Below are positions 6,643 to 29,647 of a DNA stretch of 64,000 nucleotides, one piece after another; position 1 is the first letter of the stretch, and every line of letters begins with the position of its first letter. Below the pieces are notes generated by a model that was not told where the DNA came from, did not search any database, and worked only from the letters and a program-made list of their open reading frames with translations. Both the position numbers and the translations under genes were made by a program. This stretch comes from Candidatus Contendibacter odensensis (lineage in GTDB: Bacteria > Pseudomonadota > Gammaproteobacteria > Competibacterales > Competibacteraceae). The DNA is taken from contig PDTV01000011.1 in assembly GCA_002747185.1 (NCBI GenBank), positions 6,216 to 70,215 on the forward strand, read 5' to 3'.

Positions 6643-7674
6643 ATGACGCAATGGTATTTGAGTTTTGACGGACAGCAGATTGGGCCTATGGATGTTGATA
6701 AAGCACGCGCTCAGGCTATGGTAAATCCTGAGGGTCAGGCCTGGCACGAAGGGCTTGCCAGGTGGACACCGATTTGTGAAATCCCCGAGCTTAAGACGGT
6801 ATCGACACCAGCGTCATCATCTTCTGTTACAGAGGCGAATCAAAACGCTATTATATCATCTTCTAATTCTTGCCCCAGACCTACACAAGCTGATGAAGTG
6901 GACTATTTCATTCATGGACAGGAAATGCAGTTTGTAGAAATTGAGCTGGATCCAGAGGAGAGTGCTGTCGCTGAAGCAGGGGCGATGATGTACAAAGATT
7001 CAGTAATCCAGATGGAAACCATTTTTGGTGATGGATCACATAATACGGGTAATAGTGGTTTCATGGCTAAATTATTGGGGGCGGGGAAGCGATTATTAAC
7101 CGGTGAAAGCCTGTTTATGACAGTGTTCACTCATGCGGGTCACCATGGCAAGGCACGGGTAGCATTTGCCGCCCCGTTCCCGGGTCATATCATTCCGATC
7201 TCACTTGCAAATATGGATGGACGGTTGATTTGCCAGAAGGATAGTTTTCTCTGTGCTGCTCGTGGAGTCAGTATTGGTATTCACTTCCAGAAGCGAATTT
7301 TGACGGGTTTGTTTGGTGGTGAAGGTTTTATTATGCAAAAACTGGAAGGGGATGGTCTGGTTTTTGTCCATGCAGGTGGCACATTAATGGAACGGCAACT
7401 GGATCATGGCGAAACATTACACGTTGATACAGGTTGTCTCGTTGCCATGCAGAGTAGTGTTGATTTTGACGTAGAAATGGTAGGTGGTATTAAGTCAACG
7501 CTATTTGGTGGTGAAGGTTTGTTCTTTGCTACGTTGCGTGGCCCCGGACATATCTGGTTACAGTCTTTACCCTTTTCACGACTTGCTGGACGAATGCTGG
7601 CATCTGCCCCACAAGCGGGCGGTTCTCAGGGTGAAGGTTCCATACTCGGTGGTATTTTAACAGGTAACCGATAA
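6643..7674 (+). CDS. GYF_2 (DUF4339) domain fused to a TIGR00266/AIM24 (DUF124) family domain
   Basis: The N-terminus WYLSFDGQQIGPM...WHEGLARWTPICEIPEL is GYF_2-like. After a Ser-rich linker the body (VEIELDPEESAVAEAGAMMY..., GEGFIMQKLEGDG, GEGLFFATLRGPG) matches the AIM24 family pattern. Confidence 0.65.
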   Translation: MTQWYLSFDGQQIGPMDVDKARAQAMVNPEGQAWHEGLARWTPICEIPELKTVSTPASSSSVTEANQNAIISSSNSCPRPTQADEVDYFIHGQEMQFVEIELDPEESAVAEAGAMMYKDSVIQMETIFGDGSHNTGNSGFMAKLLGAGKRLLTGESLFMTVFTHAGHHGKARVAFAAPFPGHIIPISLANMDGRLICQKDSFLCAARGVSIGIHFQKRILTGLFGGEGFIMQKLEGDGLVFVHAGGTLMERQLDHGETLHVDTGCLVAMQSSVDFDVEMVGGIKSTLFGGEGLFFATLRGPGHIWLQSLPFSRLAGRMLASAPQAGGSQGEGSILGGILTGNR

Positions 7675-7846
7675 TGGTTATTATACCATCATATTACTAT
7701 TGCAACCAACAATATTGATTATATACCACACAGGAGAACCAGAACTGCTAAAGCAATAACCTTTTGAAGTACCAAATATTAGTAACATATCCGGCACTTT
7801 TTGGATGATGGAGCTGTTACTAATGATGGTCTACCTAACAGTATAA

Positions 7847-9985
7847 CTAACTTGCAGCCATTTTCAGGGCGAGCACAATCACTGACCATGGCTTTACCTG
7901 AAAGTCATTATCGGCTTGTACCAGGCTTTCTACAGAAAGCTGCTCAGGGTGAAAAGTATCCAGTAAACAGTACCAATGATCGCTATTTTTGATCCGGGGA
8001 AGCTGGAATGAAATATTTGCCGCACTGGCATTAAAAATAACCAGTAGCGTATCATCCGTATCAGGGTAACCGTCTGTTGTGAAAAATTCGCCGGCATCAC
8101 CCGATAACAACATACCAAAACATCGAGCTTTCGGTTCTTGCCAGTCATGGTTATTCATGGCTTCACCGCCTGGGCTTATCCAGGCGATATCGTGCAGGTC
8201 GGTAGTATCGGATGTTTGAAAGCCATGCATAAAGCGGGATCTACGTAACACCGGATGCTCATGGCGCATGTAAATCAGACGACGCACAAAATCAGCAAAC
8301 GCTTGTTCTTCATCCGGGATATCTTGCCAATTGATCCAGTTAATTGCATTGTCTTGGCAGTAGGCGTTGTTATTACCGTGCTGGCTACGACCAAATTCAT
8401 CGCCGGCTAATAGCATTGGGGTACCTTGAGCAAGGAATACCGTTGCAAGCATATTGCGTCGTTGGCGCTGCCGTAGTTGCTGGATGCCGGGGTCTTCGGT
8501 TGGGCCTTCAATACCATGATTATTACTGAAATTACTCGGATGGCCATCACGGTTGTCTTCACCATTAATCTCATTATGGCGCTCGTTATATGAAACGAGG
8601 TCAGCCAGCGTAAAGCCATCATGGCTGGCAACGTAGTTAACTGTGGCCCATGGTCGCCGACTGTCATGCTCGAACAGGTCACTGGATGCCAGCAGGTTAG
8701 GGGCCAACCGGGCAATCATATTATCATCCCCGCACCAGAAGCGCCGAACAGTGTCACGGAAGCGATCATTCCATTCGGCAGTTCCTGGCGGGAATCCACC
8801 GAGCTGGTAACCTCCCGGGCCGATATCCCAAGGCTCGGCAATAATCTTGACCCGTGACATGGCAGGATCCTGGCTGATGGCATCAAAGAAACCACTACTG
8901 CGGTCGTAGCCATATTCTTCACGAGCCAGGGTAACTGCCAGGTCGAAGCGGAAACCATCAATATGTATTTCATTGACCCAGTAGCGCAGGCTATCCATAA
9001 CCATCTGCAAAACACGAGGGTGGGTTAGGTTCAGGGTATTTCCACAACCGGTATCGTTGATATAGAAGCGGCGATTTTCAGGTTGCAGTCGGTAGTAAGA
9101 GGCATTATCGATACCTCGAAAACTGAGTGTTGGCCCTAATTCGTTACCCTCAGCCGTGTGGTTATAGACTACATCCAGCAGCACTTCGATACCCGCATCG
9201 TGCAACTGCTTGACCATGTTTTTGACTTCTGCCAGATCGCCACCGCCCAAATAGCGCATTTCTGGCGCAAAGAAACAGAGCGTGTTATATCCCCAGTAAT
9301 TGCGTAACCCGCGGTCGGTAAGGAAGCGGTCATCAACAAAGGCATGAATAGGCATCAACTCGACGGCAGTGATCCCAAGTGATCGTAGATACTTAATGAT
9401 CTCGGGGTGGGAGAGACCCGCAAATGTGCCGCGCAGGTGATCAGGAATCTCCGGATGCTTGATGGTGAATCCCCGAACATGTGTTTCATAAATGATGGTT
9501 TTTTGCCAGGGTATCTCAGGTGCATGATCATTTGCCCAGGCAAAATGGGTATCAGCGACAACGCATTTGATCATCTCATGGGCATTGTCACGGGTATCGA
9601 AGGACAGATCGGCGTCATGATGACCGACCTGATAGCCACAATGCTCATCACGTAAGTGCAGAGAACCATAAAACTGTTTAGCATAAGGGTCCAATAGCAG
9701 TTTATGGTGATTGAAGCGGTGGCCATTACTGGGTTCATAAGGCCCAAAAACCCGATAACCATATAAGGCACCTGGCCAGATCCCGGGAACGTAGCCATGC
9801 CAAATCTGATCGGTGTTCTCAGGAAGTGCCAGGCGCTCAACTTCACGTTGGCCTGATGGATCGAATAAACACAATTCGATTTTCTCTGCGTGGGCGGAAA
9901 AAATAGCAAAATTAACACCTTTTCCATCCCAGTTTGCACCGAGTGGATACGGCTTTCCAGGCCACACACGAGCACGTGATGACAT
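7847..9985 (-). CDS. glgX: Glycogen debranching enzyme
   Basis: 712 aa. The N-terminus GKPYPLGANWDGKGVNFAIFS and the GH13 catalytic motifs (GFRFDLA, EPWD) are present. The SD lies at the complement of 9991-9997. Confidence 0.9.
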   Translation of the reverse strand: MSSRARVWPGKPYPLGANWDGKGVNFAIFSAHAEKIELCLFDPSGQREVERLALPENTDQIWHGYVPGIWPGALYGYRVFGPYEPSNGHRFNHHKLLLDPYAKQFYGSLHLRDEHCGYQVGHHDADLSFDTRDNAHEMIKCVVADTHFAWANDHAPEIPWQKTIIYETHVRGFTIKHPEIPDHLRGTFAGLSHPEIIKYLRSLGITAVELMPIHAFVDDRFLTDRGLRNYWGYNTLCFFAPEMRYLGGGDLAEVKNMVKQLHDAGIEVLLDVVYNHTAEGNELGPTLSFRGIDNASYYRLQPENRRFYINDTGCGNTLNLTHPRVLQMVMDSLRYWVNEIHIDGFRFDLAVTLAREEYGYDRSSGFFDAISQDPAMSRVKIIAEPWDIGPGGYQLGGFPPGTAEWNDRFRDTVRRFWCGDDNMIARLAPNLLASSDLFEHDSRRPWATVNYVASHDGFTLADLVSYNERHNEINGEDNRDGHPSNFSNNHGIEGPTEDPGIQQLRQRQRRNMLATVFLAQGTPMLLAGDEFGRSQHGNNNAYCQDNAINWINWQDIPDEEQAFADFVRRLIYMRHEHPVLRRSRFMHGFQTSDTTDLHDIAWISPGGEAMNNHDWQEPKARCFGMLLSGDAGEFFTTDGYPDTDDTLLVIFNASAANISFQLPRIKNSDHWYCLLDTFHPEQLSVESLVQADNDFQVKPWSVIVLALKMAAS

Positions 9986-10002
9986 ACTAGCCCCCTTATT
10001 TT

Positions 10003-10014
10003 TTGTAACTAAAG
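10003..10014 (+). promoter_or_regulatory. Ter-like site: 12-nt identity (TTGTAACTAAAG) to the E. coli TerA/TerB core
   Basis: The context is cttattttTTGTAACTAAAGc. The site lies 145 nt beyond the stop of the Tus-like gene and 18 nt upstream of the glgX start codon. The flanking Ter positions 6, 8 and 10 differ from E. coli. Confidence 0.3.
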
Positions 10015-10158
10015 CAGCAATTGATAAAAAAATGCCCGCACAATCAATTCAAGTTTTTTTAAGTGTATGCATAGTGTAGGCAATTTTATTTGTATCGTTA
10101 TACCTGAATTTACCAGTCATTTTTATATAGTTTTTATATCATCATATTACTAATAAAC

Positions 10159-11067
10159 TCACCGGTATTCAGAACGATACCTGTACACCCGAACAAGCGG
10201 CAAGAAAGGATCATCCTCAATACGCACATCAGCACGACGCAACCGGGGCACAAGGGGCGGGTCAGGGGGCACCGGTACAAATTCAGGGAACGACTCGCCT
10301 TCAAGTGGCACCAATATCGGTAGCGGAGCCTGCATTAAACGGCGCTGCACCCCATTGGAAGATGCCAAATCAGCAAATACAACATTAGCACGCAAATGAG
10401 GGCACACACTACGAACCCGCGCCAGCATCTCATCTTCAGCTATTTTGGCAAGTCGCTGCAATTCCAGACGTGTCTGCGGCGTCTCAATCCGCTTCTCCAG
10501 CAACTGACGCGCCGTGGCTACACTGGTCCGCTGGATAACACGCCCACGCTTAGACCAAGTAAAACCAACCTTCAGCGGACACCGATCCAAAAGGGGAATA
10601 TGACGGTAGGCCTGCTTAAGATTAAGACGAGCAGCCCCCATACGCTGCATGGCCATTGCAACTTTTTCCGACCGACGAAACAAATCAGCCATAACCTCAT
10701 TGGTTTGAGTGCGCGCCAGAACCTTGAGCGCCAACACACTCGCCTTAAAATTCTCCTTGGCAATATTACAAGCATGCGCAGCAGCCAATGTAGCCACACT
10801 GGCACCGACTATCCCAGGACACGTTAACGTCTCACGACCGTCCTGACTAGCTTCATACCAGAGTGCGCGATACAAATCTATTGCCTTTTCACGCATATCT
10901 ACATGGTTAGTCAGTTCCAGCTCGGTACGTGATACCCAAACCTGAAGTGCTGCATCTTGTCGAACTGCCGTACAGCACTCATTCAAGCTGTTAATCAACG
11001 CATCAAAGCGCTCTAATAAATCCATTTGCAGCGTAACAAGTGTTGCTGCCCTGGCCTGTTTTTTCAT
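10159..11067 (-). CDS. Candidate Tus-family DNA replication terminus site-binding protein (distant)
   Basis: 302 aa. It shows collinear by-eye similarity to E. coli Tus (309 aa): DLLERF/DLVDRL, TCPGIV/RLPGVL, LKQAYR/LNAYR, LKVGFTWSKR/LRFGWANKH, QLLEK/AQLEK and LVRVYRY/RLHLYV. It lies 23 nt downstream of cysB, with a ggaggg SD. Confidence 0.45.
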   Translation of the reverse strand: MKKQARAATLVTLQMDLLERFDALINSLNECCTAVRQDAALQVWVSRTELELTNHVDMREKAIDLYRALWYEASQDGRETLTCPGIVGASVATLAAAHACNIAKENFKASVLALKVLARTQTNEVMADLFRRSEKVAMAMQRMGAARLNLKQAYRHIPLLDRCPLKVGFTWSKRGRVIQRTSVATARQLLEKRIETPQTRLELQRLAKIAEDEMLARVRSVCPHLRANVVFADLASSNGVQRRLMQAPLPILVPLEGESFPEFVPVPPDPPLVPRLRRADVRIEDDPFLPLVRVYRYRSEYR

Positions 11068-11090
11068 AACGCAAAGTACCCTCCACCCAT

Positions 11091-12068
11091 TTAATAAACA
11101 GGCAATTGCACATTACTGAACAGGGCATCTACCTCCTCAAGGGATTCCGCTTTTTCAGCTTTCCTAACACGATCTTGAGAGAAATGAGATGAAAACAGCT
11201 CCATAAAAGCATACATATAACACCTCAAAAACATACCACGCCGAAAGCCCAATTTAGTCACATTCATTGCAAACAAATGACCCGCATCAAGGCGAATCAA
11301 ATCCTGATCATATAATGGGTCATAAGCCATCCTCGCAATGATACCAACACCCATACCAAGTCGAACATAAGCTTTAATAACATCAGCATCAGTAGCCGTA
11401 AAAGCAACATTGGGTTTCAGTTGTGCATTCCGGAAGGCTTCATCCAGCTGCGATTGGCCTGTAAATCCAAAGACATAAGTCACTAATGGGTAACGGGCAA
11501 CATCATTCAGTGTCAACTGGTCAATTTCAACCAAAGGGTGTCCCCGGGGAACCAATATACAACGCCTCCAAATATAACAAGGCATCATGACCAGATCATC
11601 AAAAAGCTCCAGCGCTTCAGTGGCAATAGCAAAATCGACCTCCCCGGACCGAACCAATTCAGCAATTTGTGCTGGCGATCCCTGATGAACCTGGAGTGTA
11701 ACTGCCGGATAATGCTCACGAAATGTTCGTAACACTGGAGGAAGTGCATAGCGTGCCTGGGTATGGGTCGTTGCAATTGACAAGCTACCACGTCGATCAT
11801 CCCGATATTCTTCCGATAAAATTTGAATATTATTGACTTCACGAAGAATGGCTTCCGCCTTAGCAATAATCTGGTGGCCTACGGGTGTAATCCCGGATAA
11901 ATGTTTGCCATTACGGCTAAATAATTCAACCCCAAGCTCCTCTTCAAGAAGTCGTAACTGCTTGCTAATGCCGGGTTGTGAAGTATAAAGACTCTCGGCT
12001 GCGGCAGAAATATTTAGACCATTACGAACAATGGCAATCAGATAACGCAGTTGTTGCAGCTTCATCAA
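11091..12068 (-). CDS. cysB: LysR-family regulator CysB
   Basis: It closely follows E. coli CysB along its whole length (MKLQQLRY..., LYTSQPGISKQ, ATTHTQARYALP, FTATDADVIKTYVRLG-type segments). The start codon could be either of two adjacent Met codons. Confidence 0.85.
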   Translation of the reverse strand: MMKLQQLRYLIAIVRNGLNISAAAESLYTSQPGISKQLRLLEEELGVELFSRNGKHLSGITPVGHQIIAKAEAILREVNNIQILSEEYRDDRRGSLSIATTHTQARYALPPVLRTFREHYPAVTLQVHQGSPAQIAELVRSGEVDFAIATEALELFDDLVMMPCYIWRRCILVPRGHPLVEIDQLTLNDVARYPLVTYVFGFTGQSQLDEAFRNAQLKPNVAFTATDADVIKAYVRLGMGVGIIARMAYDPLYDQDLIRLDAGHLFAMNVTKLGFRRGMFLRCYMYAFMELFSSHFSQDRVRKAEKAESLEEVDALFSNVQLPVY

Positions 12069-12111
12069 AAGTCCTGAAATAGATTACTTAAACAGAAAAA
12101 TACCCAGGAAA

Positions 12112-14334
12112 CTAATCCTGTGCACAAGATTCATCATTAAATGGAAAACGAAGCAGAATAATACCTGTTAATGGAGGCAAGTTTACTACCAGTGAATACG
12201 GTTGGTGCATATAAGCCATTGGAGTCGCGGCTATATTTTTATTGACCAAACCACGACCACCGTAACATGGCGCATCAGAGTTCATAACTTCTACATAGTA
12301 ACCCGGAGCAGGTACTCCAATCTGATAGTCACGATAGGTTATGGCAGAAAAATTCAGTATAACAATCATCAATTGAGATTCAGTATGGCGGGAGTACACA
12401 ATAACTGATTGTGATGCGCCGCAACAATCAATCCATCGAAACCCATCTTGAGAAAAATCACATTTATGCAGGCTTTCCTTTGCGAGATATAATTTATTTA
12501 GATCGCCAACCAGCTGGTGTATGCCCGCATGCTCAGGCGTAGCCAAAAGATCCCAATCCAGCGTTCCAGAGTAATCCCATTCATTTTTTTGAGAGAACTC
12601 ACTGCCCATAAATAATAACTTCTTACCCGGATACGTCCACATATAGACATAGAGCAATCGCAAATTAGCAAATTTTTGAACAGGATCCCCCGGCATCTTC
12701 TCTAGCAAAGAGCCCTTACCATGGACCACTTCATCATGAGAGAAGGGCAGTACAAAATTTTCATTAAACGCATATAACAAACTAAAGGTCAAAATGTCAT
12801 GATAATGATTACGCAAAGCGGGATCCAGGGTTAGAAATTCCAACACATCGTGCATCCAGCCCATATTCCATTTCATCCCGAATCCTAGTCCGCCCATCCC
12901 GGAAGGTCGGGTCACAAAGGGCCAGGCTGTCGATTCTTCAGCAATAATCAACACACCAGGAAAACGTCGGCGAATGACATCATTCATTTCCCGCAAAAAT
13001 GCAACAGCTTCAATATTTTCGTTTCCACCTAATGGGTTAGGTGACCATTCCCCAGATTCGCGGGCGTAATCCAAATAGAGCATGGATGCAACAGCATCAA
13101 CCCGCAAACCATCCAAATGACACTCCTCCAGCCAGAAACAAGCGCTTGCCAATAAAAAGTTTTTAACTTGTGTGCAGCTATAGTCGAATGTTAATGTACC
13201 CCAACCACGATGTTCCCGCCGGTTCGGGTCAGTGTGCTCATATAAAAAAGAACCGTCAAAGCAGGCCAATGAATGCTTATCCTTGGGAAAATGACCGGGT
13301 ACCCAATCGAGGATCACACCAATACCAGCCTGATGACAATAATCGACAAATTGACGAAAGTCATCAGGATTGCCATGACGACTCGTGGGTGCAAAATAGC
13401 CGGTAGGTTGATAACCCCAAGAGGCGTCCAGGGGATGCTCGGTAATCGGCATCAATTCGATGTGTGTAAAACCCAGGGCACTGACATAGGCAACCAGGCG
13501 CTGCGCTAACTCCTTATAATTTAAATACCCGCCATCCTTGTCACGTTGCCAGGAGCCGAGATGGACTTCATAAATGGATAACGGCATCTGATTCCAGTCA
13601 CGCTGGTGTTGAAGCTGCATCCAGGCCTGGTCATGCCAAGGGTAAGGTGTGTCACTGGTAACGATGGCAGCTACCGCAGGCCGTTTTTCAAAATGTTGGC
13701 CATAGGGGTCAGTTTTCCTGAGCAGCTCGCCGGTATCGCGGACACGCAACTCGAATTGATAGCGGTCACCTATCGCTGCACCAGGAATAAAAAGCTCCCA
13801 GATACCGTCACGCCAACGCATCGGATGACAGGTTGCATGCCAGGCATTGAAATCGCCCAGCACGCTGACCCGCTCAGCATTTGGTGCCCAGATAGCGAAC
13901 AGTATGCCTTCAATACCTTCTATTATCCGAGGGTGGGCACCTAGTACCCGATAGGTATTTAAATGACGGCCTTTATGAAACAAATCCAGGTCATATCGGC
14001 TTAATTGCGCTTCAAAACTGTAGGGATCATAAATAATATGTTCCTGGCCTTCAGCATCGATCCACGCCATCTGATAGTGCCGTGGCAAGACGACACCTTG
14101 ACCTGTCCACTCGAATAACGGGGTGTCTGCAATCCGCCGCAACAGAAAATCACCTTCCAGCAAGTAAACTTGACAGGCATCAGGCAAGAAAGCGCGAATC
14201 GCAATATTGTCACCACGTCGATGGCAACCCAGCACGGCAAATGGGTCAGGATGATGCCCATCGCGCAGGAGGGTAGCGGCAGTGAGCAAATCACCTTCAG
14301 ATAGCAGGGTGTTGTCGTATTCCGAGTCACTCAT
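12112..14334 (-). CDS. glgB: 1,4-alpha-glucan branching enzyme
   Basis: 740 aa. It has the GH13_9 motifs (DWVPGHF, GLRVDAVASM, IAEESTAWP) and the usual N-terminal CBM48 region. Confidence 0.9.
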   Translation of the reverse strand: MSDSEYDNTLLSEGDLLTAATLLRDGHHPDPFAVLGCHRRGDNIAIRAFLPDACQVYLLEGDFLLRRIADTPLFEWTGQGVVLPRHYQMAWIDAEGQEHIIYDPYSFEAQLSRYDLDLFHKGRHLNTYRVLGAHPRIIEGIEGILFAIWAPNAERVSVLGDFNAWHATCHPMRWRDGIWELFIPGAAIGDRYQFELRVRDTGELLRKTDPYGQHFEKRPAVAAIVTSDTPYPWHDQAWMQLQHQRDWNQMPLSIYEVHLGSWQRDKDGGYLNYKELAQRLVAYVSALGFTHIELMPITEHPLDASWGYQPTGYFAPTSRHGNPDDFRQFVDYCHQAGIGVILDWVPGHFPKDKHSLACFDGSFLYEHTDPNRREHRGWGTLTFDYSCTQVKNFLLASACFWLEECHLDGLRVDAVASMLYLDYARESGEWSPNPLGGNENIEAVAFLREMNDVIRRRFPGVLIIAEESTAWPFVTRPSGMGGLGFGMKWNMGWMHDVLEFLTLDPALRNHYHDILTFSLLYAFNENFVLPFSHDEVVHGKGSLLEKMPGDPVQKFANLRLLYVYMWTYPGKKLLFMGSEFSQKNEWDYSGTLDWDLLATPEHAGIHQLVGDLNKLYLAKESLHKCDFSQDGFRWIDCCGASQSVIVYSRHTESQLMIVILNFSAITYRDYQIGVPAPGYYVEVMNSDAPCYGGRGLVNKNIAATPMAYMHQPYSLVVNLPPLTGIILLRFPFNDESCAQD

Positions 14335-14487
14335 TAACAGTATTAGTTATCACGGGATATGATAGTCAGTGGCAAAAATTGCTTTTGGAGTACTAATATT
14401 AGACATCATCCAAAAGCATCCTGGATTAATGCTAGATGCTTTGTATCTAACCAATTGAGAATTATAGCAAAGAGGTCGATCAAGCGC

Positions 14488-15759
14488 ATGAGCGCCGCGA
14501 CTGCATCACGTTTCGTTAGCCGCCTAACCCGAGGAACTGTGGCACTCATTCTAGCTGGAGGCCGAGGTAGCCGGCTAAAACAGTTAACACTTTGGCGAGC
14601 CAAGCCAGCAACGCCATTCGGCGGAAAGTATCGAATTATCGACTTCCCCTTGTCAAACTGCATTAATTCAGGAATAAGACGCATTTGTGTACTCACTCAG
14701 TACAAGGCACACTCCCTGATCCAGCATATCCAGCGTGGCTGGGGCTTTTTGCGTGGTGAATTTGGTGAATTTGTCGAGCTATTGCCAGCACAACAGCGCA
14801 TCGATGAGGAGTCCTGGTATAAAGGGACCGCAGATGCCGTTTATCAAAATATGGATATATTGCGCAACCATGATCCCGAATTTGTCCTCATTCTCGCCGG
14901 TGATCACATTTACAAAATGGATTATGGTCCTATGCTGGCTCACCATATTGAAAATGAAGCGGATGTTACCGTTGGCAGTATTGAGGTGCCACAACAACGG
15001 GCTTATGCGTTTGGGGTACTGACAGTAAACGAGCACAATGAGATTATCCGCCTCGTTGAGAAACCGCAGGAACCTGAAACCTTGTTGGAGCGAGGCGATG
15101 TGGCACTGGTTTCGATGGGTATTTATGTATTTAGTACCCGATTTTTATATCAGTGCCTGATTGAAGATGCCAGCCAAATAGGTTCGCAGCATGATTTTAG
15201 TCGGGATATCATCCCAAAATTACTTGAACACTATCGCGTTATTGCCTATCCCTTCCACGATGTGCAGACCAAGGCCAAGGGGTATTGGCGTGATGTCGGT
15301 ACCGTAGATGCTTTTTGGAAATCGAATACTGAGCTGGTGGACATCGACCCGGAGTTGAATCTGTATGATGGGCATTGGCCAATCTGGACCTATCAGGATC
15401 AGTCACCGCCAGCCAAGTTTGTATTTGATGATGAAGGGCGACGTGGCATGGCCGTTGACTCAATGATTGCGGATGGTTGCATTATTTCGGGTGGCTACGT
15501 TAATCACTCGCTTTTGTTTTCGAAAGTCCAGGTGCACTCCTTCGCGGAATTGCACGACGTTGTTATATTGCCGGGAGTCGATATCGGCCGCTATTGCCGA
15601 CTACGCAAAACCATTATCGAACGAGGTTGTATTATCCCGCCCGGCACGGTCATCGGTGAGGATCCTGAGGAGGATACCCGCCGGTTTTACCGTACAGAGA
15701 ACGGCGTGGTTCTGGTTACACCTGAAATGCTGGGACAAGCATTTCATAATATCCGCTGA
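14488..15759 (+). CDS. glgC: Glucose-1-phosphate adenylyltransferase
   Basis: I placed the start at ATG 14488 (MSAATASRFV...LILAGGRGSRLK), downstream of the first in-frame Met of the ORF track. The protein has the typical ADP-glucose pyrophosphorylase body and a left-handed beta-helix tail. Confidence 0.9.
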   Translation: MSAATASRFVSRLTRGTVALILAGGRGSRLKQLTLWRAKPATPFGGKYRIIDFPLSNCINSGIRRICVLTQYKAHSLIQHIQRGWGFLRGEFGEFVELLPAQQRIDEESWYKGTADAVYQNMDILRNHDPEFVLILAGDHIYKMDYGPMLAHHIENEADVTVGSIEVPQQRAYAFGVLTVNEHNEIIRLVEKPQEPETLLERGDVALVSMGIYVFSTRFLYQCLIEDASQIGSQHDFSRDIIPKLLEHYRVIAYPFHDVQTKAKGYWRDVGTVDAFWKSNTELVDIDPELNLYDGHWPIWTYQDQSPPAKFVFDDEGRRGMAVDSMIADGCIISGGYVNHSLLFSKVQVHSFAELHDVVILPGVDIGRYCRLRKTIIERGCIIPPGTVIGEDPEEDTRRFYRTENGVVLVTPEMLGQAFHNIR

Positions 15760-15816
15760 TCTTTTCGCCTAAAGCCAGCAGCAATCACATCATAATCTTT
15801 AAGGAGTTATTGACTC

Positions 15817-17283
15817 ATGAGCGGGAATGCGCCCTTCGTTCAGCGCCGTGCCGGGCTTTTACTTCATCCGACATCGTTGCCAGGTGATCATGGTAGTGGC
15901 GATTTGGGGCCAAACGCTTACCGGTTTATCGAATTTATGGCTGCTTGTGGCTTTACCATGTGGCAAACACTGCCACTAGGGCCACCTCACGATGATTTAT
16001 CGCCTTACTCGGCGCAATCTGTACATGCGGGCAATCCTCGCCTGATTGCGCTAGAGCCGCTGATTGAAGCCGGCTGGTTACAAGAAGATGGTGGCGGGCA
16101 AGGGTGGGATTATCGTCAGCAGCGATTGGCCGAAGCCTACCGGAGCTTTGTCAATGATGGTGGTTCCAGGCATGAGGATTATATCGCTTTTCAGGCGCAA
16201 CATGCTTATTGGCTAGACGATTACGTGCTGTATCAAGCTATCCGCAAAGCACATGATCAGTGGGCATGGTTTGATTGGCCAACTGAGTTGCGTGACCGCG
16301 AACCGGAGGCTATCGCAGCTGCACGAAAAGATTATGCTGAAAGTATCGCACAATACACTTTTGAACAATTTTTATTCTTCCAGCAATGGATAACGCTCAA
16401 GCGTTACGCGAATGAGCATGGCATACTGATTTTTGGTGATATACCCCTTTTTGTCGGTTATGACAGCGCTGATGTCTGGGCGCAACGTGAGGCCTTTCAA
16501 CTTGATCAGAGCGGGCAGAGGAAAGTGGTTGCTGGTGTACCGCCGGATTATTTTTCGGAAACAGGTCAATTATGGGGCAATCCACATTATTCGTGGAAAG
16601 CGATGCAAGCAGACGGCTTTGAATGGTGGAAGCAACGTATCCGTACCCAATTTACGCAGTTTGATTTGTTGCGTATTGACCATTTTCGAGGGTTGGAAGC
16701 CTATTGGGAGATTCCTGCTGATGCGGACACAGCGGTTCATGGTCGCTGGCAACAGGCTCCAGGCCATGAATTACTCAACACGCTACAGCAGGAATTTGGT
16801 GAGTTACCGCTGGTTGCAGAAGATCTCGGGATTATTACCGATGACGTTGAAGCATTACGTGATGCTCATAATTTACCGGGCATGAAGGTTTTGCATTTCG
16901 CTTTTGGAGGTGGCGCGAATAACCCTTATTTGCCTCATAATCATATCGTCAACTCAGTGGTTTATACCGGCACACACGATAACAATACAACACTGGGCTG
17001 GTTTGAAGAGCTTGATGAAAGCACGCGAGCACATGTATTTGGCTATTTAGGAGGAGATGCCGGGCAAATGCCTGAGTTACTGGTACGGACCGCTCTGGCT
17101 TCAGTGGCACGACTCGCTATTATACCGATGCAGGATGTATTAAAGCTGGGTGGTGAGGACAGGATGAATCGACCCGGTACACCTGATGGAAACTGGACAT
17201 GGCAGTTTCAATGGGAACAGGTGGAGCCACAGCTTGCCGGGCGTTACCGGTCCTTGTTGAGCATGTACGGACGTATCGTTTGA
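15817..17283 (+). CDS. malQ: 4-alpha-glucanotransferase (amylomaltase)
   Basis: 488 aa. It has the GH77 pattern (RRAGLLLHPTSLPG, RIDHFRG, AEDLG, TGTHDN). Confidence 0.9.
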   Translation: MSGNAPFVQRRAGLLLHPTSLPGDHGSGDLGPNAYRFIEFMAACGFTMWQTLPLGPPHDDLSPYSAQSVHAGNPRLIALEPLIEAGWLQEDGGGQGWDYRQQRLAEAYRSFVNDGGSRHEDYIAFQAQHAYWLDDYVLYQAIRKAHDQWAWFDWPTELRDREPEAIAAARKDYAESIAQYTFEQFLFFQQWITLKRYANEHGILIFGDIPLFVGYDSADVWAQREAFQLDQSGQRKVVAGVPPDYFSETGQLWGNPHYSWKAMQADGFEWWKQRIRTQFTQFDLLRIDHFRGLEAYWEIPADADTAVHGRWQQAPGHELLNTLQQEFGELPLVAEDLGIITDDVEALRDAHNLPGMKVLHFAFGGGANNPYLPHNHIVNSVVYTGTHDNNTTLGWFEELDESTRAHVFGYLGGDAGQMPELLVRTALASVARLAIIPMQDVLKLGGEDRMNRPGTPDGNWTWQFQWEQVEPQLAGRYRSLLSMYGRIV

Positions 17284-17293
17284 GGTTTAGGTT

Positions 17294-18346
17294 ATGCGTA
17301 TTGAGGCTGATCTTAAACTGGGGTTCAAGGACGTACTGATTCGGCCAAAGCGTTCGACGCTGGGTAGTCGGGCCCAGGTTAGTCTGGAGCGCACCTTCAA
17401 ATTTCGACATAGTGGCCGATGCTGGAGTGGCATACCGATTATGGCTGCCAATATGGATACCGTTGGTACCTTTCCAATGGCGAAGGCATTGGCAACCTAT
17501 CAGTTGATAACGGCGGTTCACAAGCATTATTCACTTTCAGAATGGGATGATTTTGTTTCTGAATTTTGTTCAAACCATCATCAATCCGGGCTGGATTATA
17601 TAGCTGTCAGCACCGGGATTCTCGATAGCGATCTGGATAAGCTGGATCGGCTTTTTGCAAAGCATCCCAGTCTGGGCCTTGTTTGCATTGATGTCGCAAA
17701 CGGTTACTCGGAACAATTCGTTGCATGTGTTCGAAAGGTACGGGAATGCTATCCTGAAAAGGTGATTATCGCGGGTAATGTGGTGACCGGCGAGATGGTG
17801 GAAGAATTGTTACTGTCCGGTGCAGATATTGTCAAAGTCGGGATTGGCCCTGGTTCGGTCTGTACGACCCGTGTCAAAACGGGAGTAGGTTATCCACAAT
17901 TATCTGCAATCATTGAGTGCGCCGATGCCGCTCATGGTTTATCCGGACAAATTATTTCAGACGGTGGTTGTATCTGCCCCGGCGATGTTGCCAAGGCGTT
18001 TGGTGCGGGTGCTGATTTTGTGATGCTGGGTGGAATGCTGGCCGGTTGCGATGAAGGTGGTGGACGGCTTATTGAGCGGAATGGCGAGCATCTATGTGAA
18101 TTTTATGGAATGAGCTCAAAAAAGGCGATGGAGAAGTATAGCGGTGGCCTTGCTGAGTATCGTGCTTCTGAAGGAAAAGAGGTTTCTGTGCCGTATCGGG
18201 GCGCGGTAGAGCATGTTGTCAAGGATATTCTTGGTGGGCTGCGTTCAACATGCACATATGTTGGCGCAGGCCGATTAAAGGAACTGAGTAAGCGAACCAC
18301 ATTTGTGCGGGTTGCTGAACAACATAATCCTGTTTTTGATTTTTGA
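17294..18346 (+). CDS. guaC: GMP reductase
   Basis: The N-terminus [23 protein letters not shown]...ANMDTVGTF is nearly identical to E. coli GuaC. Confidence 0.9.
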
Positions 18347-19200
18347 TGGTTAGCGCCATGTTAGGTGATCAACAATTTGCTGCTCCACGATTGTGGCGGG
18401 TCATCGAAGCTGTACGGATGCAGAAACCGCTGGTACATAGCATCACCAACCTGGTTGTTACAAATACTACAGCCAATGTATTGCTTGCTACAGGCGCTTC
18501 ACCAGCGATGGTGCATTCGCTGGATGAAGTCGAAAGATTTGCACCGCAGGCAAAAGCACTGGTCATCAATATTGGCACGCTGGATTCGAAGTGCCTGGCA
18601 GCAATGAAGCTCGCTATTCTAACGGCCAATAGCGCTGGTATTCCCTGGGTGCTCGACCCGGTAGGCGCGGGTGCGACACCTTATCGTTTACAGGCTGCAA
18701 TGGCACTCGGTTATCAAAAACCGAGTGTTATTCGTGGTAATGCTTCCGAGATTCTAGCTTTAACCTATGGCTCTGATGGGGTGGGCAAAGGCGTGGATAG
18801 TGTTGATAGTTCCGAGGCTGCACTGGGTGCTGCACAATCACTGGCGGTCGATAGAAACGCTATAGTGGCGGTTACTGGAGCAGTGGATTATGTTACGGAC
18901 GGCAAACAGGTTATAGGTATTGCCAATGGCCATCCGCTGATGACATCGGTAACAGGACTGGGCTGCTCGGCAACAGCGGTGGTAGGTGCCTGTCTGGCAG
19001 TAGAACCTGATCCGGTTGTGGCAGCAGTTGCAGGACTGGCGTTATTTGATATCGCCGGAGAGCAAGCCGCAAAAGCAGCACAAGGCCCCGGCAGTCTGCA
19101 AGCAGGGTTGCTGGATGTACTTTACGGCCTTGATCAGGCGGTGTTCCAGGATGCGTTGCGGCTCAGTCTTGTCAGCGATTGTGAGGCCGTGATTCACTGA
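18346..19200 (+). CDS. thiM: Hydroxyethylthiazole kinase
   Basis: It has LVHSITNLVVTNTTANVLLATGASPAM and the rest of the ThiM pattern. The ATG at 18346 overlaps the guaC TGA (tgATG). Confidence 0.85.
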   Translation: MVSAMLGDQQFAAPRLWRVIEAVRMQKPLVHSITNLVVTNTTANVLLATGASPAMVHSLDEVERFAPQAKALVINIGTLDSKCLAAMKLAILTANSAGIPWVLDPVGAGATPYRLQAAMALGYQKPSVIRGNASEILALTYGSDGVGKGVDSVDSSEAALGAAQSLAVDRNAIVAVTGAVDYVTDGKQVIGIANGHPLMTSVTGLGCSATAVVGACLAVEPDPVVAAVAGLALFDIAGEQAAKAAQGPGSLQAGLLDVLYGLDQAVFQDALRLSLVSDCEAVIH

Positions 19201-19308
19201 TTCATTTGCGATGCTTTTTCAAATGAACTCAAACGAGCGGGTGAGATGGGCAGCAAGATCGTATACCACCCATCTCCTCCATTCCGTGCATCGTGGACGT
19301 GTACTGGT

Positions 19309-20751
19309 TTAACGTGGCAATTCTGAATGTCCCATTAAATACCCGTCGACGGCATGAGCACATTGTCGGCCCTCACGGATGGCCCAGACGACCAATGATT
19401 GCCCACGCCGCATGTCGCCTGCACTAAAAATCTTGTTAATGGAAGTTTGATAATCCTGCTCATTGGCATTGACATTGCCACGTGCATCAAGTGCTACACC
19501 CAGATCTTGCAATAAACCCTCGTGAACAGGATGCACAAAGCCCATCGCCAACAAAACAAGATCCGCTTTAATTTCAAAGGTGCTATCTGGCACTTCAAGC
19601 ATGGTTTGGCGGCCGTTTTCCGACTGCCATTCCAGCCGTACCGCCTGAAGCGCTCTAACTTGACCATGACTATTCCCCAAAAATGCTTTGGTCGTGACGC
19701 ACCAATCACGTTTACAGCCTTCCTCATGAGAGCTGGAGGTTCGTAGTTTCAGTGGCCAATTTGGCCAGCTCAACAGCTTGTTTTCATGGAGAGGCGGTTT
19801 CGGCATGATTTCCAGCTGGGTCACGGAGCGCGCACCGTGACGTACCGAAGTACCCACACAATCGGAGCCGGTGTCACCACCGCCAATCACTACCACATCT
19901 TTATCGGTAGCAATAATCTCTTTTTCAGCAGGAATCGCCTTACCTGCAACGCGCCGGTTTTGCTGCGTCAGAAAATCCATAGCAAAGTAGATACCAGGCA
20001 ATTCATGGCCGGGCACATCCAATGTACGTGGTTTTTCCGATCCTCCTGCCAGAACCACAGCATCAAACTCTGTCAATATTTTCTGCGCAGAAACATCGGT
20101 ACCCACATGACTGTTGGGACGAAATGCCACACCTTCAGCACGCATCTGCGCCAGACGGCGGTCAATCCACCGGGATTCAAGCTTAAAGTCGGGGATACCG
20201 TAACGAAGCAAACCACCGATTTGATCGTTTTTTTCAAATATAACCACCTTATGGCCAACACGGGCCAATTGCTGGGCACAGGCAAGGCCAGCAGGACCCG
20301 AGCCGATGATAGCAACCCGCTTGCCTGTACGGTGAGCGGCAATCTGCGGCGTTACCCAACCTTCTGCCCATCCCCTATCGATAATGGCACATTCAATGTC
20401 CTTGATAGTAACAGGTTGGTCATTGAAGTTCAGGGTGCACGATGCTTCACAAGGCGCCGGACAAATTCGGCCGGTAAATTCCGGAAAGTTATTGGTAGAG
20501 TGCAATACATCCAGGGCTTCACGCCAGTTGCCACGGTAAACCAGATCGTTCCAATCCGGGATGATATTATGTACCGGACAACCACGATGGCAGAAAGGAA
20601 TACCACAGTCCATACAGCGAGCGCCTTGCTCGCGAATTTGTGATTCCTCCAGAGGGATTACAAAATCACGGAAATTCTTGATCCGTTCTGCAACGGGCAG
20701 GTAATTGTGGTCGTTGCGGGTAATTTCCAAAAATCCGGTGGGTTTGCCCAT
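19309..20751 (-). CDS. gltD: Glutamate synthase small subunit
   Basis: 480 aa. It has the N-terminus MGKPTGFLE, Cys clusters and a GSGPAGLA dinucleotide fold. It lies directly downstream of gltB. Confidence 0.9.
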
Positions 20752-20754
20752 ATG

Positions 20755-23700
20755 TTAAGCTCCAACAGCCACACTGGCTTGCTTGTTGTTACTGGCCATG
20801 CTAGCTTTTTCCTGTATTTCCTGTAGCGCCCGCCGGTAGTCCAAGGGCATAACCTTTACAAAGGCTGGCAATAATTCGCGCCAGTTTTCCAGCACACGGT
20901 GTGCAGGCGCGCTTCCCGTATTCTGATAATGACGGGCGACCAGTATGTGCAGTCGTTTAGCATCGTGACGGAGTTGCTGTTTAGGCAACTCTGTTGCCGC
21001 CAGGGCGCTCCAGTCAGCATGCAAGGCATGAACGTTTAACGTTTCCTCAGCATCGTTTAGCGGTTCCAGCGTAACCATTGCAGTATTGGCACGTCGTTTG
21101 AAGTCACCATGTTCGTCCAGTACATAAGCAATACCACCACTCATACCGGCGGCAAAATTACGGCCGGTTGCGCCTAGCACTACGACTACTCCACCGGTCA
21201 TATATTCACAACCGTGGTCGCCGGTGCCTTCAACAACAGCAACAGCGCCTGAGTTGCGTACCGCAAAACGCTCACCGGCAATGCCCCGGAAATAGCATTC
21301 ACCGCCAATCGCACCGTACAGAACAGTATTACCGATAATGATATTGTCCTCAGGACACAAGGTGCTGGTACTTTGTGGTCGGATAATAATTCGTCCACCG
21401 GATAGGCCCTTGCCAACGTAGTCATTGGCCTCACCCGCTAATTCAAAGGTCACGCCTCGCGCCAGAAATGCGCCGAAGCTTTGACCTGCAGTACCCTTCA
21501 GGCGAACATGAACGGTGTTGTCCGGCAAGCCGGCATGGCCATAACGGCGTACTATTTGTCCCGATAGCATCGTACCGGCGGTGCGATCAGTATTGGCGAT
21601 CGGTGATTCGATTGTAACCGCCTGCCTTGAATCCAGGGCCGGTTTTGCCTGCTCGATCAGACGATGATCGAGCACATTGTCCAAACCATGATCCTGTTTC
21701 TGGCAATGATACGTGGCTACACCTTCAGGGGCATGGGGCACGGCCAGCAGGCGGGTAAAGTCCAGACCGCGTACTTTCCAATGCTGAATCGCTCGACGCA
21801 TATCAAGCCGGTCAGCGCGGCCTACCATTTCATCAAAGGTGCGAAAACCGAGCTTCGCCATCAGCTCGCGGACTTCCTCGACCAGGAATGTGAAGAGATT
21901 AATGACATGCGCAGGTTCCCCGGGAAAACGTTTACGCAGCTCTTCGTTTTGGGTGGCAACACCTACCGGGCAGGTGTTGAGATGGCATTTACGCATCATG
22001 ATACAACCGGCAGCAATCAACCCAATGGTACCGAAGCCGAATTCGTCTGCACCCAATAATGCGCCGATGACAATATCGCGCCCGGTACGCAGGCCACCAT
22101 CGACCTGAACGGCGATACGTCCACGCAGATCGTTACGAACCAGGGTCTGGTGAGTTTCTGCCAGACCGATTTCCCAAGGTGAACCGGCATGCTGGATAGA
22201 GGTTAGCGGACTCGCACCGGTACCGCCGTCATCGCCAGAAATGGTGATATGATCGGCATGCGCTTTCGATACACCGGCTGCGACTGTACCGACACCGATT
22301 TCCGAGACCAGTTTAACACTGATATCTGCCTGTGGATTAGCGTTTTTGAGGTCAAAAATAAGCTGTGCCAAATCTTCAATGGAGTAGATATCATGATGTG
22401 GTGGCGGCGAAATGAGTCCGACACCAGGAGTGGAATGACGGACTTTGGCAATCCAGTCATTGACCTTGTGTCCTGGTAACTGTCCACCTTCACCTGGTTT
22501 TGCGCCTTGTGCCATTTTGATCTGAATCGCATCGGCATTGACCAGGTATTCTGTAGTGACACCAAAACGCCCTGATGCAACCTGCTTGATCGCTGAGCGG
22601 GCGAGATCACCATTTTCCAGCGGTGTGTAGCGTTTGGCATCCTCGCCACCTTCTCCGGTATTTGATTTTGCGCCCAGCTTGTTCATCGCAATCGCCAGGG
22701 TGGTGTGCGCCTCCCAGGATATCGAGCCAAAAGACATGGCGCCCGTAGAAAAACGCTTGACAATCTCGCAGGCTGGTTCCACTTCATCCAGGGGTATCGG
22801 GTCAGCGGTAAAACGGAACTCGAATAGACCACGCAGGTTACGTAAACCGTCACGCTGCCTGTTCATAGTCTGGCTATATTGCTTGAATTTTTGATAATCA
22901 CTTGCCCGGACCGCGTGCTGAACCAGCGAAATGGTTTCCGGTGTCCAGGCGTGTTCTTCACCACGAATACGGTATGCAAGGTCGCCACCGGTGTCCAGGC
23001 GATTGCGATACAGTGGCGCATTACCAAAGGCCAGGTGGTGACGACGGACAGCATCTTCAGCAATTTCGCTCAAACCGACACCTTCAATTACGCCTTGCGT
23101 ATTGGTGAAGTAGCGCTCGACAAATTTGCTGGACAGGCCGACGGCTTCAAAAATTTGTGCACCGCAGTACGATTGATAAGTGGAAATACCCATTTTTGAC
23201 ATCACTTTGAGGATGCCCTTGGATACGGCCTTGGTGTAGCGCTCGTGAATGTCTGCCTGAGCCGCTGGCTGCAATACGGTCGGTGCATGAACTGTCAGGG
23301 TGTCAAATGCAAGGTAGGGGTTGATGGCCTCAGCACCATAACCGGCGAGCAAGCAGAAATCCTGCACGCGTCGCGCTTCGCCGGTTTCAACCACTAGACC
23401 CACTTCGGTTCGCAGACCACCACGAATCAGGTGGTGGTGAACAGCGGCGGTGGCGAGCAGGGCGGGGATTGCGATGTGATCGGCATCCACGTCCCGATCC
23501 GAAAGTATCAGGATGTTATAGCCACGACGAACAGTATCGGCGGCTTCACGACACAGGCTTTCCAGCGCAAGCGCCATACCCTTTGCGCCCCGTTCTACCG
23601 GATAGCAGATACTCAAGGTACGGGTGCGGAAGGCACGGTCCACATGGTATTCGATGCGACGAATCCGCTCCAGGTCAATGTTATCGAGAATCGGGCGCTT

Positions 23701-25404: not shown

Positions 25405-25718
25405 GGGTATTCCTCAAGAAATCGGTGGCGGGCAGCGGTCCCTGTAAGGGCGGTTCCATAGGTTTGCCTGGGTGATAGCCGAAATTTGGAGTCGCCATCA
25501 ATTTTTCAAAAGCGGCATACTAACTAGCACCTGCCTGCTTATGCAACTGTTATAAGCCCGCGATAGTATTCAGTGGAAGAGGGTGGCCGAATTCCGTATT
25601 TTAATTTTGCTCAATTATCGCTTGACATCACATATGGCTATAGAGCAATCAGGTTGATCTTGCAGGCTGGAAGCGGAATCCTGCAGGCAGGCAAGGATGA
25701 TTGACCGCTTGTACGTGG

Positions 25719-26864
25719 CTATTTTTTCAGGCGATGCTGCTCCATGGCATCATGCCATTCTTTCTCCTCGGCATGCAGATACAAACCGGTGGTATCAAGA
25801 CGGGCATGACGAGCGTTGCGCTGTAGGTGCGAAAGATCAATGCCCGCATCTGCTTGATGGGTAATGCTGGTATGTCGGAGCCAGTGTGTGGAAGCACGGC
25901 GCAATCTTTCAGCTTGATATGGGTCATCTGCGTCCAGCCGCATAGCTGCTTTGGTAACCAGATCTTTGATTATCCTGTAAATCATATTGCTGCTAATGCC
26001 ACTAGTGCCCTTAAGATTCATCACTAGGGGTATCTCCTCACCGGGTGACGGGAGTGGCGACAAACCAAGGAACTGCCGGTATTCCCGCAAGGCTTGCAGC
26101 ATGTCACGGTTGACAGGTACACGTGCTTCTTTTTGACCTTTACCGGTAACATGCCACCACCAGCGGCTACGAATCTGTACAAAGCTGCCCATCGTATGAT
26201 TAGCAATCTCACTCACCCGGGGGCCTAGCAGGTAAAGTAATGCAAGCAGGTAACGTGCGCGGGCATGGTGCTGTTGATCGCGCTTGCTATCTTGCGGTAG
26301 TGCTTTAATGGTATCCAGCAAGGCTTGCCATTGATCGTGTTCAAGAAAACGTTCCACGCTATTTGTGGCGTTTTGGTTACGATGGCGACGACGAACCAAT
26401 GCCAATGGATTGCCTGCCAGATAGCCGGCTTTAACTAGGTAACTCAGCATCGAATTGATGATTAACATGGCTACCTTGCGGCTTGATGGGCCGAGCGCAC
26501 CTAGAAAAGGCCGCCAGCGTGCACTATGACGTGGTGCTTTTGGCCCGCACCAACGTTCTCCTGGCTGTGGGTCGCTGAGGAAAATCTCATAAAGAATACA
26601 GTCTTCGCGGGTCAAACTGGATAATGGTTTTTTACGCTCAAGCAGTGCCCAAAGCAGTAATCGCTCGGCTTCCTTGCGATAGTTTCGCAGGGTTTGCGGC
26701 GAGTCATGGTATTCAGCAAGCCATGCATTAATTGCTTCAAGGTCGTTATTGGCAGCTAGTTGGCAAACGACCTCCGGGCCTGCACGATTACGTCCTGTCC
26801 GGCCATCGAGGTCTTGCGGTAATTGCAGCCGCTCTAGTGGAAGGGTTGCTGAGAAGGTGGTCAT
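25719..26864 (-). CDS. Tyrosine-type site-specific recombinase/integrase
   Basis: I placed the start at ATG 26864 (MTTFSATLP...). It has an N-terminal SAM-like region (LRNYRKEAERLLLWA) and a catalytic set that looks intact (GPRVSEI Arg, HWLRHT His-x-x-Arg, RHARLDTTGLYLH with the Tyr). Confidence 0.8.
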   Translation of the reverse strand: MTTFSATLPLERLQLPQDLDGRTGRNRAGPEVVCQLAANNDLEAINAWLAEYHDSPQTLRNYRKEAERLLLWALLERKKPLSSLTREDCILYEIFLSDPQPGERWCGPKAPRHSARWRPFLGALGPSSRKVAMLIINSMLSYLVKAGYLAGNPLALVRRRHRNQNATNSVERFLEHDQWQALLDTIKALPQDSKRDQQHHARARYLLALLYLLGPRVSEIANHTMGSFVQIRSRWWWHVTGKGQKEARVPVNRDMLQALREYRQFLGLSPLPSPGEEIPLVMNLKGTSGISSNMIYRIIKDLVTKAAMRLDADDPYQAERLRRASTHWLRHTSITHQADAGIDLSHLQRNARHARLDTTGLYLHAEEKEWHDAMEQHRLKK

Positions 26865-27123
26865 AAGCAGGTCTTTAGGGGATGGGGAAACGGGGGGTAG
26901 CCGGGTGCAGGTGTGGTGGAAGGTCGTGTTTCTGGATAACGTATTTCTTATTAATTTACCACTAAAGATTTTGCTGTTGCCATACAGGTTAAGGAAATTA
27001 TTCTTGGATGTATCAGTTGACAACAAGCTGCTTATTGCATGTCCGTAGTGGTTTTTTTCATTAAAAAATAATTCATGATTATAGTAATTATCTTGAATTT
27101 CTGCATGTAAAATGTGTATAAAT

Positions 27124-27156
27124 TACGTAATACGTAATATTGTCTTGTGGTATAAT
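27124..27156 (+). promoter_or_regulatory. Putative kfrA-like promoter with a tandem TACGTAA TACGTAA operator candidate
   Basis: An extended -10 (tgg tataat) sits at 27148-27156, 35 nt before ATG 27191. Two adjacent TACGTAA heptamers (27124-27137) lie at the -35 position. This is the AT-rich divergent region shared with the integrase gene. Confidence 0.35.
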
Positions 27157-27190
27157 CCCAAAATTATTCTTTGACACGGTAATCATAATT

Positions 27191-28231: not shown

Positions 28232-28240
28232 GCATCCAGT

Positions 28241-29581
<1,341 letters not shown>

Positions 29582-29647
29582 TTAAAGGCGATTCTACCTT
29601 AAACCGCCTCTAAATCACGTTAATAAATTGACCTTGATACCAGTAAG

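Follow-up and report, generated by a model that had tools for sequence, protein, structure and literature searches.

A very divergent Tus homologue and oriented candidate Ter sites: a proposed narrow replication fork trap in Competibacteraceae

A 64,000-nt stretch of one contig (PDTV01000011.1, positions 6,216-70,215) from a metagenome-assembled genome (MAG) of Candidatus Contendibacter odensensis, a wastewater bacterium of the Competibacteraceae, encodes a 302-aa protein that is almost certainly a genuine, very divergent homologue of Tus, which together with its Ter sites in Escherichia coli forms the textbook polar replication barrier. Within this stretch, hereafter the window, the tus-like gene is adjoined by one of five copies of an asymmetric motif that points one way on the left and the opposite way on the right, and it is probable that the divergent Tus operates a narrow type I fork trap of 19.4 kb at these sites. 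As to the protein, the assignment concerns a member of a known family that was already partly annotated; what is added here is a candidate Ter consensus and a fork-trap layout, both of them computational. The features of the proposed trap are given below by window coordinates, with scores from a position weight matrix (PWM) of the motif.

10159-11067, minus strand: tus-like gene, 302 aa with an ATG start, predicted to encode a divergent DNA-binding protein of the Tus family (PF05472-related).
10131-10148, plus strand: candidate Ter L1, TTTTTATATCATCATATT, 27.5 bits; innermost left site, ending 10 nt past the tus stop.
7678-7695, plus strand: candidate Ter L2, TTATTATACCATCATATT, 24.7 bits; backup left site, intergenic between a TIGR00266-family gene and glgX.
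6848-6865, plus strand: candidate Ter L3, CTATTATATCATCTTCTA, 24.1 bits; outermost left site, within the coding open reading frame (ORF) 6643-7674.
29554-29571, minus strand: candidate Ter R1, ATCTTATATCATCATATT (as read on the minus strand), 25.2 bits; innermost right site, in the interval between serS and a thiolase gene.
31053-31070, minus strand: candidate Ter R2, ATAATATACCATCATCTT (as read on the minus strand), 21.7 bits; backup right site, in the interval between the thiolase gene and the arginyltransferase gene (bpt).
10149-29553, no strand: inner zone of the proposed trap, 19.4 kb, with tus, cysB, glgB, gltBD, a tyrosine recombinase gene and serS.
11091-12068, minus strand: cysB (CysB equivalog NF009326, 507.6 bits), the neighbour upstream of tus.

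The motif exists, is specific, is strictly oriented and is conserved. It emerged from a scan of the window for repeats, in which TTATAYCATCATATT was present in three exact copies where 0.38 would be expected even with two mismatches allowed. Its consensus, TnTTATAYCATCATCT (16-18 bp), was derived from 62 related Competibacteraceae tus loci of GTDB species-level genomes (1.1 Mb scanned), the sites of which also supplied the PWM. Against a null 95th-percentile maximum score of 16 bits in the window, the PWM returned exactly five matches, at 21.7-27.5 bits, and none between 10 and 21 bits. All left-hand sites are on the plus strand and all right-hand sites on the minus strand, and the inner zone between them (10149-29553) contains no match of 10 bits or more.

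The same orientation was found across the 62 related loci. There the 9-mer core TATAYCATC occurred 123 times on the strand opposite to tus and 3 times on the same strand, when about 10 occurrences would be expected in total, and at a threshold of at least 17 bits the PWM placed 127 sites opposite to tus against 2 on the tus strand itself. Opposite-strand sites were evenly divided close to the gene, with 44 in the cysB-tus spacer, at most 120 bp before tus, and 44 no more than 120 bp downstream; farther out, 36 lay downstream, with the same polarity as L2, and only 2 upstream, similar amounts of sequence having been scanned on each side. An equivalent of L1, within 120 bp downstream of tus, was present in 40 of the 62 loci. 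Both same-strand matches fell in a single locus (L059), 4.5 and 5.8 kb upstream of a tus gene that is itself bracketed by two opposite-strand sites, so that its one 8.3-kb contig would carry a complete, compact trap layout. The right arm of the window recurred in the same orientation in another locus (L069), as site, thiolase gene (85% identity), site and serS (76% identity), with the equivalent of R1 about 60 bp upstream of serS and the second site beyond the thiolase orthologue. This locus was the one replicate in a metagenome scan for SerS that returned mostly non-Competibacteraceae sequences (60-68% identity) and thus served as a negative control: the 924 kb of serS loci from other bacteria gave 3 matches, 2 of them in L069, against 129 in the 1.1 Mb of tus loci.

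Could such a motif be unrelated to the protein beside it, as the site of some other factor or a lineage-specific oriented motif, with the Tus homologue a domesticated megaplasmid remnant that has another function or none? We regard this as improbable. It is true that the nearest annotated relatives of the protein are megaplasmid genes (24-33% identity), of the kind that Galli et al. (2019, PMC6549158) term "mobile". Such a reading must nevertheless accommodate the fact that a tus-vicinal site, on one or both sides of the gene, is present in 56 of the 62 loci, and likewise in L064, where the genomic context is entirely different; a more distant homologue (55% identity) on a 7.2-Mb contig, set among other genes, has the site 8 bp upstream of its start. 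The placement mirrors the tus-vicinal Ter found in all Enterobacterales (Toft et al. 2021, PMC8707476). The gene is also strongly conserved (74% mean column identity, with many invariant basic residues), as is the order glgB-cysB-tus-glgX: of the 62 loci, 53 have cysB and 45 have glgB upstream of tus, and 48 have glgX on its downstream side; in the window glgX lies at 7847-9985 and glgB at 12112-14334.

The resemblance of the protein to Tus is beyond pairwise detection and, at the level of profiles and structure, well above chance. An earlier note on this DNA, made from the sequence by eye, had proposed a Tus-family protein collinear over its whole length with E. coli Tus, in a genome that did not look enterobacterial. 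A family profile was built as an alignment of 94 diverse representatives, and an exhaustive search for the breadth of the family gave 686 clusters at 50% identity, the proteins being mostly full-length and of about 300 aa. Compared by hhalign with a profile of 17 enterobacterial Tus sequences, the family profile aligned at 96% probability (E 4.4e-9) over 233 collinear columns, family positions 6-265 against Tus 4-277; the window protein is about 16% identical to E. coli Tus. At eight positions that hardly vary in the family, enterobacterial Tus invariantly has the same residue (G85/G96, N101/N118, K104/K121, F107/F124, R155/R157, W171/W172, L190/L190 and P250/P258), and the core F-x-W-A/S of the interdomain beta-strands is common to the window protein and E. 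coli Tus. PF05472 (Ter) was matched by 62 of the 94 diverse members, at best with 7.7e-11, and Competibacteraceae relatives 57-66% identical to the window protein scored 25.5-29.6 bits against its curated cutoff of 22. The proposed family membership thus survived the profile comparison, although a direct scan of the window protein was negative, and collinearity was borne out both by the hhalign span and by some 329 aligned columns in Foldseek. Of the seven blocks that had been matched by eye, hhalign recovered five in exact register (TCPGIV/RLPGVL, (K)QAYR/NAYR, KVGFTWSKR/LRFGWANKH, QLLEK/AQLEK and PLPILVP/PTPLIAL); the N-terminal block DLLERF/DLVDRL was offset by 4 residues, about one helical turn, and the C-terminal block fell outside the alignment.

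Structure prediction led to the same family. An AlphaFold2 (AF2) model from a shallow 30-sequence alignment was unusable (predicted local distance difference test, pLDDT, of 51), and the 94-sequence alignment was used instead, giving a pLDDT of 92.9 and a predicted template modelling score (pTM) of 0.87. The four best Foldseek matches of this model in the PDB were all E. coli Tus-Ter structures (4xr2, 1ecr, 4xr1 and 4xr0; E 6e-13 to 2e-12, probability 1.00, template modelling (TM) scores 0.58-0.62); the fifth match had an E of 0.066, and no competing family appeared. The proposed fold therefore stood, and the model is predicted to have the two alpha/beta domains of Tus with interdomain beta-strands forming a DNA-binding cleft. 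These results leave only a minute chance that the similarity is spurious, arising by convergence or accident in a protein of an unrelated family. What speaks for spuriousness, and so also against the trap, is that the window protein had no match at E<=10 to the hidden Markov models (HMMs) of Pfam and NCBIfam, that PDB sequence searches with it and with both family profiles did not find Tus, and that BLASTP against E. coli Tus (taken from NC_000913) gave a nonsignificant E of 15. It would have to explain away the hhalign result, Foldseek matches exclusive to Tus with a gap of 11 orders of magnitude to the next, relatives above a curated Pfam threshold, and a full-length collinear match with shared invariant residues. 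Pfam-based surveys will under-count the Tus family, as the window protein is itself missed.

As for the source of the gene, the suspicion that it is not enterobacterial was well founded: NCBI and UniRef list an identical protein, labelled "DNA replication terminus site-binding protein", for a MAG of Candidatus Contendobacter odensis, and the clades with a "resident" tus number only three in Galli et al. (2019, PMC6549158). Relatives within the Competibacteraceae at 64-73% identity are mostly annotated as hypothetical. The taxonomic range of the wider family is poorly defined, in that a profile search again gave mainly Competibacteraceae and cluster look-ups named Pelagibaculum spongiae only.

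We propose that a Tus-like monomer binds the asymmetric 16-18 bp site TnTTATAYCATCATCT. The three plus-strand sites, at 6.8, 7.7 and 10.1 kb, would stop leftward-moving forks, and the two minus-strand sites, at 29.6 and 31.1 kb, would stop rightward-moving forks; forks could therefore enter the 19.4-kb zone and could not leave it. The geometry implies that the CATCATCT end of the site would be its non-permissive face. With an innermost left site that is tus-vicinal, its end 10 nt from the stop of the gene, and an inner zone of 19.4 kb, the trap would be of type I as Toft et al. (2021, PMC8707476) define it. The layout expected of a fork trap, with an asymmetric site adjacent to tus and opposed clusters of sites, is seen in the window, and opposed arms are seen in L059. 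We infer that the motif is the binding site of the protein, that binding would stop forks from one side only, and that the chromosome has its terminus here.

Strand composition is consistent with a terminus. The cumulative GC skew of the window peaks at 28-30 kb, and in a per-gene regression with gene strand as covariate, a single break fitted best when set after ORF 28241-29524 and before ORF 29648-30853, the interval 29524-29648 being the intergenic gap that holds R1 (effect of side 0.08 at all positions and 0.17 at third codon positions). The skew is +0.108 outside the left arm, +0.016 between the arms and -0.128 outside the right arm, and a switch in this direction, from positive to negative, is of the terminus type. 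Since the switch lies at R1, it suggests that the fork arriving via the tus side would usually come first, cross the zone and wait at R1. Most of the inner zone has the skew sign of the left-hand side, the exception being tus-cysB-glgB, whose coding strands are strongly G-rich in all loci. On the plus strand the third-codon-position GC skew is -0.50 in tus and -0.31 in cysB, compared with +0.1 to +0.3 in their neighbours; this local anomaly over tus, cysB and glgB (10159-14334) recurs in 93% of related loci and is a conserved, gene-specific composition effect. With the motif on the G-rich strand, a particular skew sign would be predicted for the outer flank of tus, and 50 of 52 related loci show it, a count that overstates independence because the loci are related; the inner side averages zero.

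A number of observations count against the proposed trap. Counts from the 62 loci cannot be taken as independent events, these loci being related and syntenic. The link between protein and motif is itself drawn by inference, and distant members of the family (loci L065-L068, 26-38% identity) have no equivalent site beside the gene. The motif has no significant similarity to TerB of E. coli (the PWM, tried in either orientation, scored -12.2 at best against a null mean of -5.1; P = 0.93) and lacks the GTTGTAAC core with G-C(6) of the enterobacterial Ter consensus; for want of this similarity, polarity is read from the geometry alone. The GC-skew evidence covers 64 kb of a MAG contig, with a left flank outside the trap of only 6.8 kb, and the skew of tus, cysB and glgB is opposite to that of their surroundings. 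No dif site of the gammaproteobacterial consensus was found in the 64-kb window, and the FtsK-orienting polar sequence (KOPS, GGGNAGGG) occurs only 3 times there, which is uninformative.

The protein also appears to lack the enterobacterial "mousetrap" lock. According to the earlier note, F140 and H144 of the C6 lock do not appear conserved, and hhalign agrees, pairing F140 with S133, which is variable within the family, and H144 with A137; of the other residues of the cytosine-binding pocket of E. coli Tus, I79 pairs with Y71 and G149 with the invariant G144, and conservation of the pocket was not found. Model confidence is at its lowest over the lock segment (pLDDT 60-76), which makes the alignment of these residues uncertain, and the C6-lock pocket seems not to be recognisable in the window protein. 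In the sites themselves, position 11 is C in 97 of 123 sites of the related loci and A in 4 of the 5 window sites, including the three that score highest.

Two likenesses to TerB were rejected. One, by eye, between the motif as read on the tus coding strand (AGATGATGRTATAA) and the E. coli sequence AGTATGTTGTAACTAA, was dismissed by the PWM comparison above. The other, a 12-mer identical to the E. coli TerB core (TTGTAACTAAAG, 10003-10014, plus strand), lies 145 bp beyond the tus stop in the upstream region of glgX; it is a single copy in the window, is conserved at the equivalent position in 0 of the 62 related loci, and is probably due to chance. A weak dif-like match at 27067-27089 has the wrong spacing and was likewise set aside.

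A protein with a Tus fold might bind the motif and serve chiefly in transcriptional regulation or autoregulation, or as a factor for nucleoid organisation or segregation in the terminus region, with no fork arrest. In 44 of the 62 loci a site does lie in the short cysB-tus spacer, where the tus promoter would be, and in E. coli TerB overlaps the tus promoter and autoregulates tus; the failure to conserve F140 and H144 and the intergenic position of all window sites but one fit a regulator as well. Such a role leaves unexplained the strict co-orientation (127:2), the same-polarity copies downstream of tus and glgX, their near absence on the inner side, and an opposite-polarity cluster 19 kb off, exactly at the GC-skew switch; one site, moreover, lies within a coding region. 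Autoregulation and fork arrest coexist in E. coli, so that the two are not exclusive, and a regulator with no part in fork arrest is in our judgement rather unlikely. Under the fork-trap proposal, the spacer site of the relatives would probably autoregulate tus as TerB does, by analogy with E. coli. The cysB-tus gap has a median of 71 bp among the related loci, and in most relatives it is a spacer of 21-114 bp, usually with an extra candidate Ter copy. In the window it has none, and tus starts 23 nt after cysB, the gap between 11067 and 11091 confirming the ORF position and spacing first reported; because promoter-like and terminator-like sites were searched for in these 23 nt and none was found, co-transcription of tus with cysB is plausible.

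Several further observations concern the gene neighbourhood. In three divergent Competibacteraceae loci (L040, L056 and L061, with tus at 10001 to about 10880), serS lies 24-155 bp downstream of tus and convergent with it, and in L056 a motif copy is found about 70 bp upstream of serS, on the tus arm. As serS marks the opposite arm in the window, its position beside tus in these loci implies that the terminus region has been rearranged across its two arms. In L065 and L066, a gene with a PF05099 "TerB" domain of the tellurite-resistance type (916-1359 and 445-888, respectively) is overlapped at its end by 4 nt by the tus-like gene (38% identity); the shared name with the Ter site TerB is coincidental, and the coupling of the two genes may merit interest. 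Downstream of the tus-like gene of L067 (26% identity), a run of GAACGT/GATCGT hexanucleotide repeats at 10859-11000 overlaps a called 41-aa ORF.

Inside the inner zone, a gene at 25719-27026 (minus strand) encodes a 435-aa tyrosine recombinase with weak XerC/XerD-like matches of about 81 bits, far below cutoffs. An orthologue of 67% identity lies at 5209-6327 of L059, in an inner zone of 4.4 kb, and others lie no more than 10 kb from tus in L015, L055 and L056; with 4 of 62 loci at this distance, the recombinase was not established as a constant component of the trap. It could be a terminus-associated recombinase for dimer resolution or part of an integrated element. Between it and an unannotated 363-aa ORF, the AT-rich divergent intergenic region 27027-27139 contains overlapping palindromes (ATTACGTAAT and TACGTA).

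Far to the right of the trap, the region 58800-59500 contains five to six degenerate copies of a unit of about 77-95 nt at a spacing of about 116-129 nt, in a stretch of low GC content (0.43) with no ORF of 150 aa or more between 58475 and 60394; the copies may be what is left of a gene for a repeat protein, or else a repeat array that does not code. Next to it, within ORF 57518-58474, the 12-nt unit AACTTTTCTCCG is repeated perfectly or nearly so in three tandem copies (57682-57724).

If the proposal is true, the Competibacteraceae would be the fourth lineage in which a fork trap is resident on the chromosome, and theirs would be narrow, of type I and based on a completely different Ter sequence. 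The full form of this claim, in which polar arrest proceeds at Ter sites unrelated to the enterobacterial ones and with no canonical C(6) pocket, following either an independent domestication or descent from a Tus that is older and more widespread (for which the 686 clusters may be cited), is put forward tentatively, as a possibility that we hold to be less than probable. Such a system would offer a natural test of what polarity requires, the mousetrap lock or a dynamic clamp with protein-protein contacts. It might also supply an orthogonal protein-site pair for engineered fork barriers, which are widely used in yeast and mammalian cells, and it would provide a terminus landmark in the Competibacteraceae, uncultured glycogen accumulators of wastewater, for genome finishing and for growth-rate (peak-to-trough) estimates. 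Within an incomplete coverage of the literature, we found no paper on replication termination in this family.

Among known systems, the Bacillus subtilis RTP-Ter system is a functional analogue of the proposed trap. RTP, a winged-helix dimer on bipartite sites, imposes polar fork arrest at oriented sites to either side of the terminus; the proteins are unrelated, and neither family-profile nor structure searches of the window protein gave any similarity to RTP. With E. coli Tus-Ter (PF05472 / IPR008865; PDB 1ECR, 2I06, 4XR0-2) the window system shares the fold and length of the protein and the opposed clusters of sites. As at TerB, an asymmetric candidate site adjoins tus, and its predicted non-permissive face would look outward from the gene, to the zone of termination. 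The many relatives with a site in the cysB-tus spacer would have this face turned as it is in E. coli, where TerB precedes tus by 11 bp and is on the strand of the gene. It differs from E. coli Tus-Ter in protein identity (about 16%), in the lack of a direct HMM match, in a site dissimilar to TerB and its core, and in the unconserved F140 and H144. E. coli has about 10 Ter sites over hundreds of kilobases, whereas the window trap would have 5 sites and a width of 19 kb.

According to Galli et al. (2019, PMC6549158), tus is "resident" in most Enterobacterales, on chromosome 2 of Pseudoalteromonas and in Aeromonadales and otherwise "mobile", with three domestications inferred. The window gene is like the mobile tus of plasmids and megaplasmids in that its closest annotated relatives are plasmid genes of Halomonas, Methylophaga, Pseudomonas and Azotobacter, which match at 26-33% identity over most or all of the length and several of which are annotated as Tus. 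Unlike these, the Competibacteraceae gene is chromosomal and sits among housekeeping genes, on contigs that reach 1.7-7.2 Mb and are thus chromosomal in size, with synteny across 62 species-level genomes. The two features by which Galli et al. recognise a resident tus, a genomic context conserved within the clade and a chromosomal location, are therefore both found here.

Another parallel is with the narrow type I traps of Enterobacterales other than Enterobacteriaceae, which are defined by an innermost Ter vicinal to tus and span 18 kb in Dickeya paradisiaca (Toft et al. 2021, PMC8707476). The proposed trap resembles them in its tus-vicinal innermost site, its narrow zone (19.4 compared with 18 kb) and a sharp GC-skew switch associated with the trap. 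Toft et al. (2021, PMC8707476) give for such traps, Edwardsiella tarda and D. paradisiaca among them, a Tus that is 46-59% identical to that of E. coli and keeps the lock residues, and Ter sites that retain C(6) and match TerB at 74-83% identity; in contrast, both the protein and the candidate site of the window lie far outside these ranges of identity, and in a different lineage, the Competibacteraceae.

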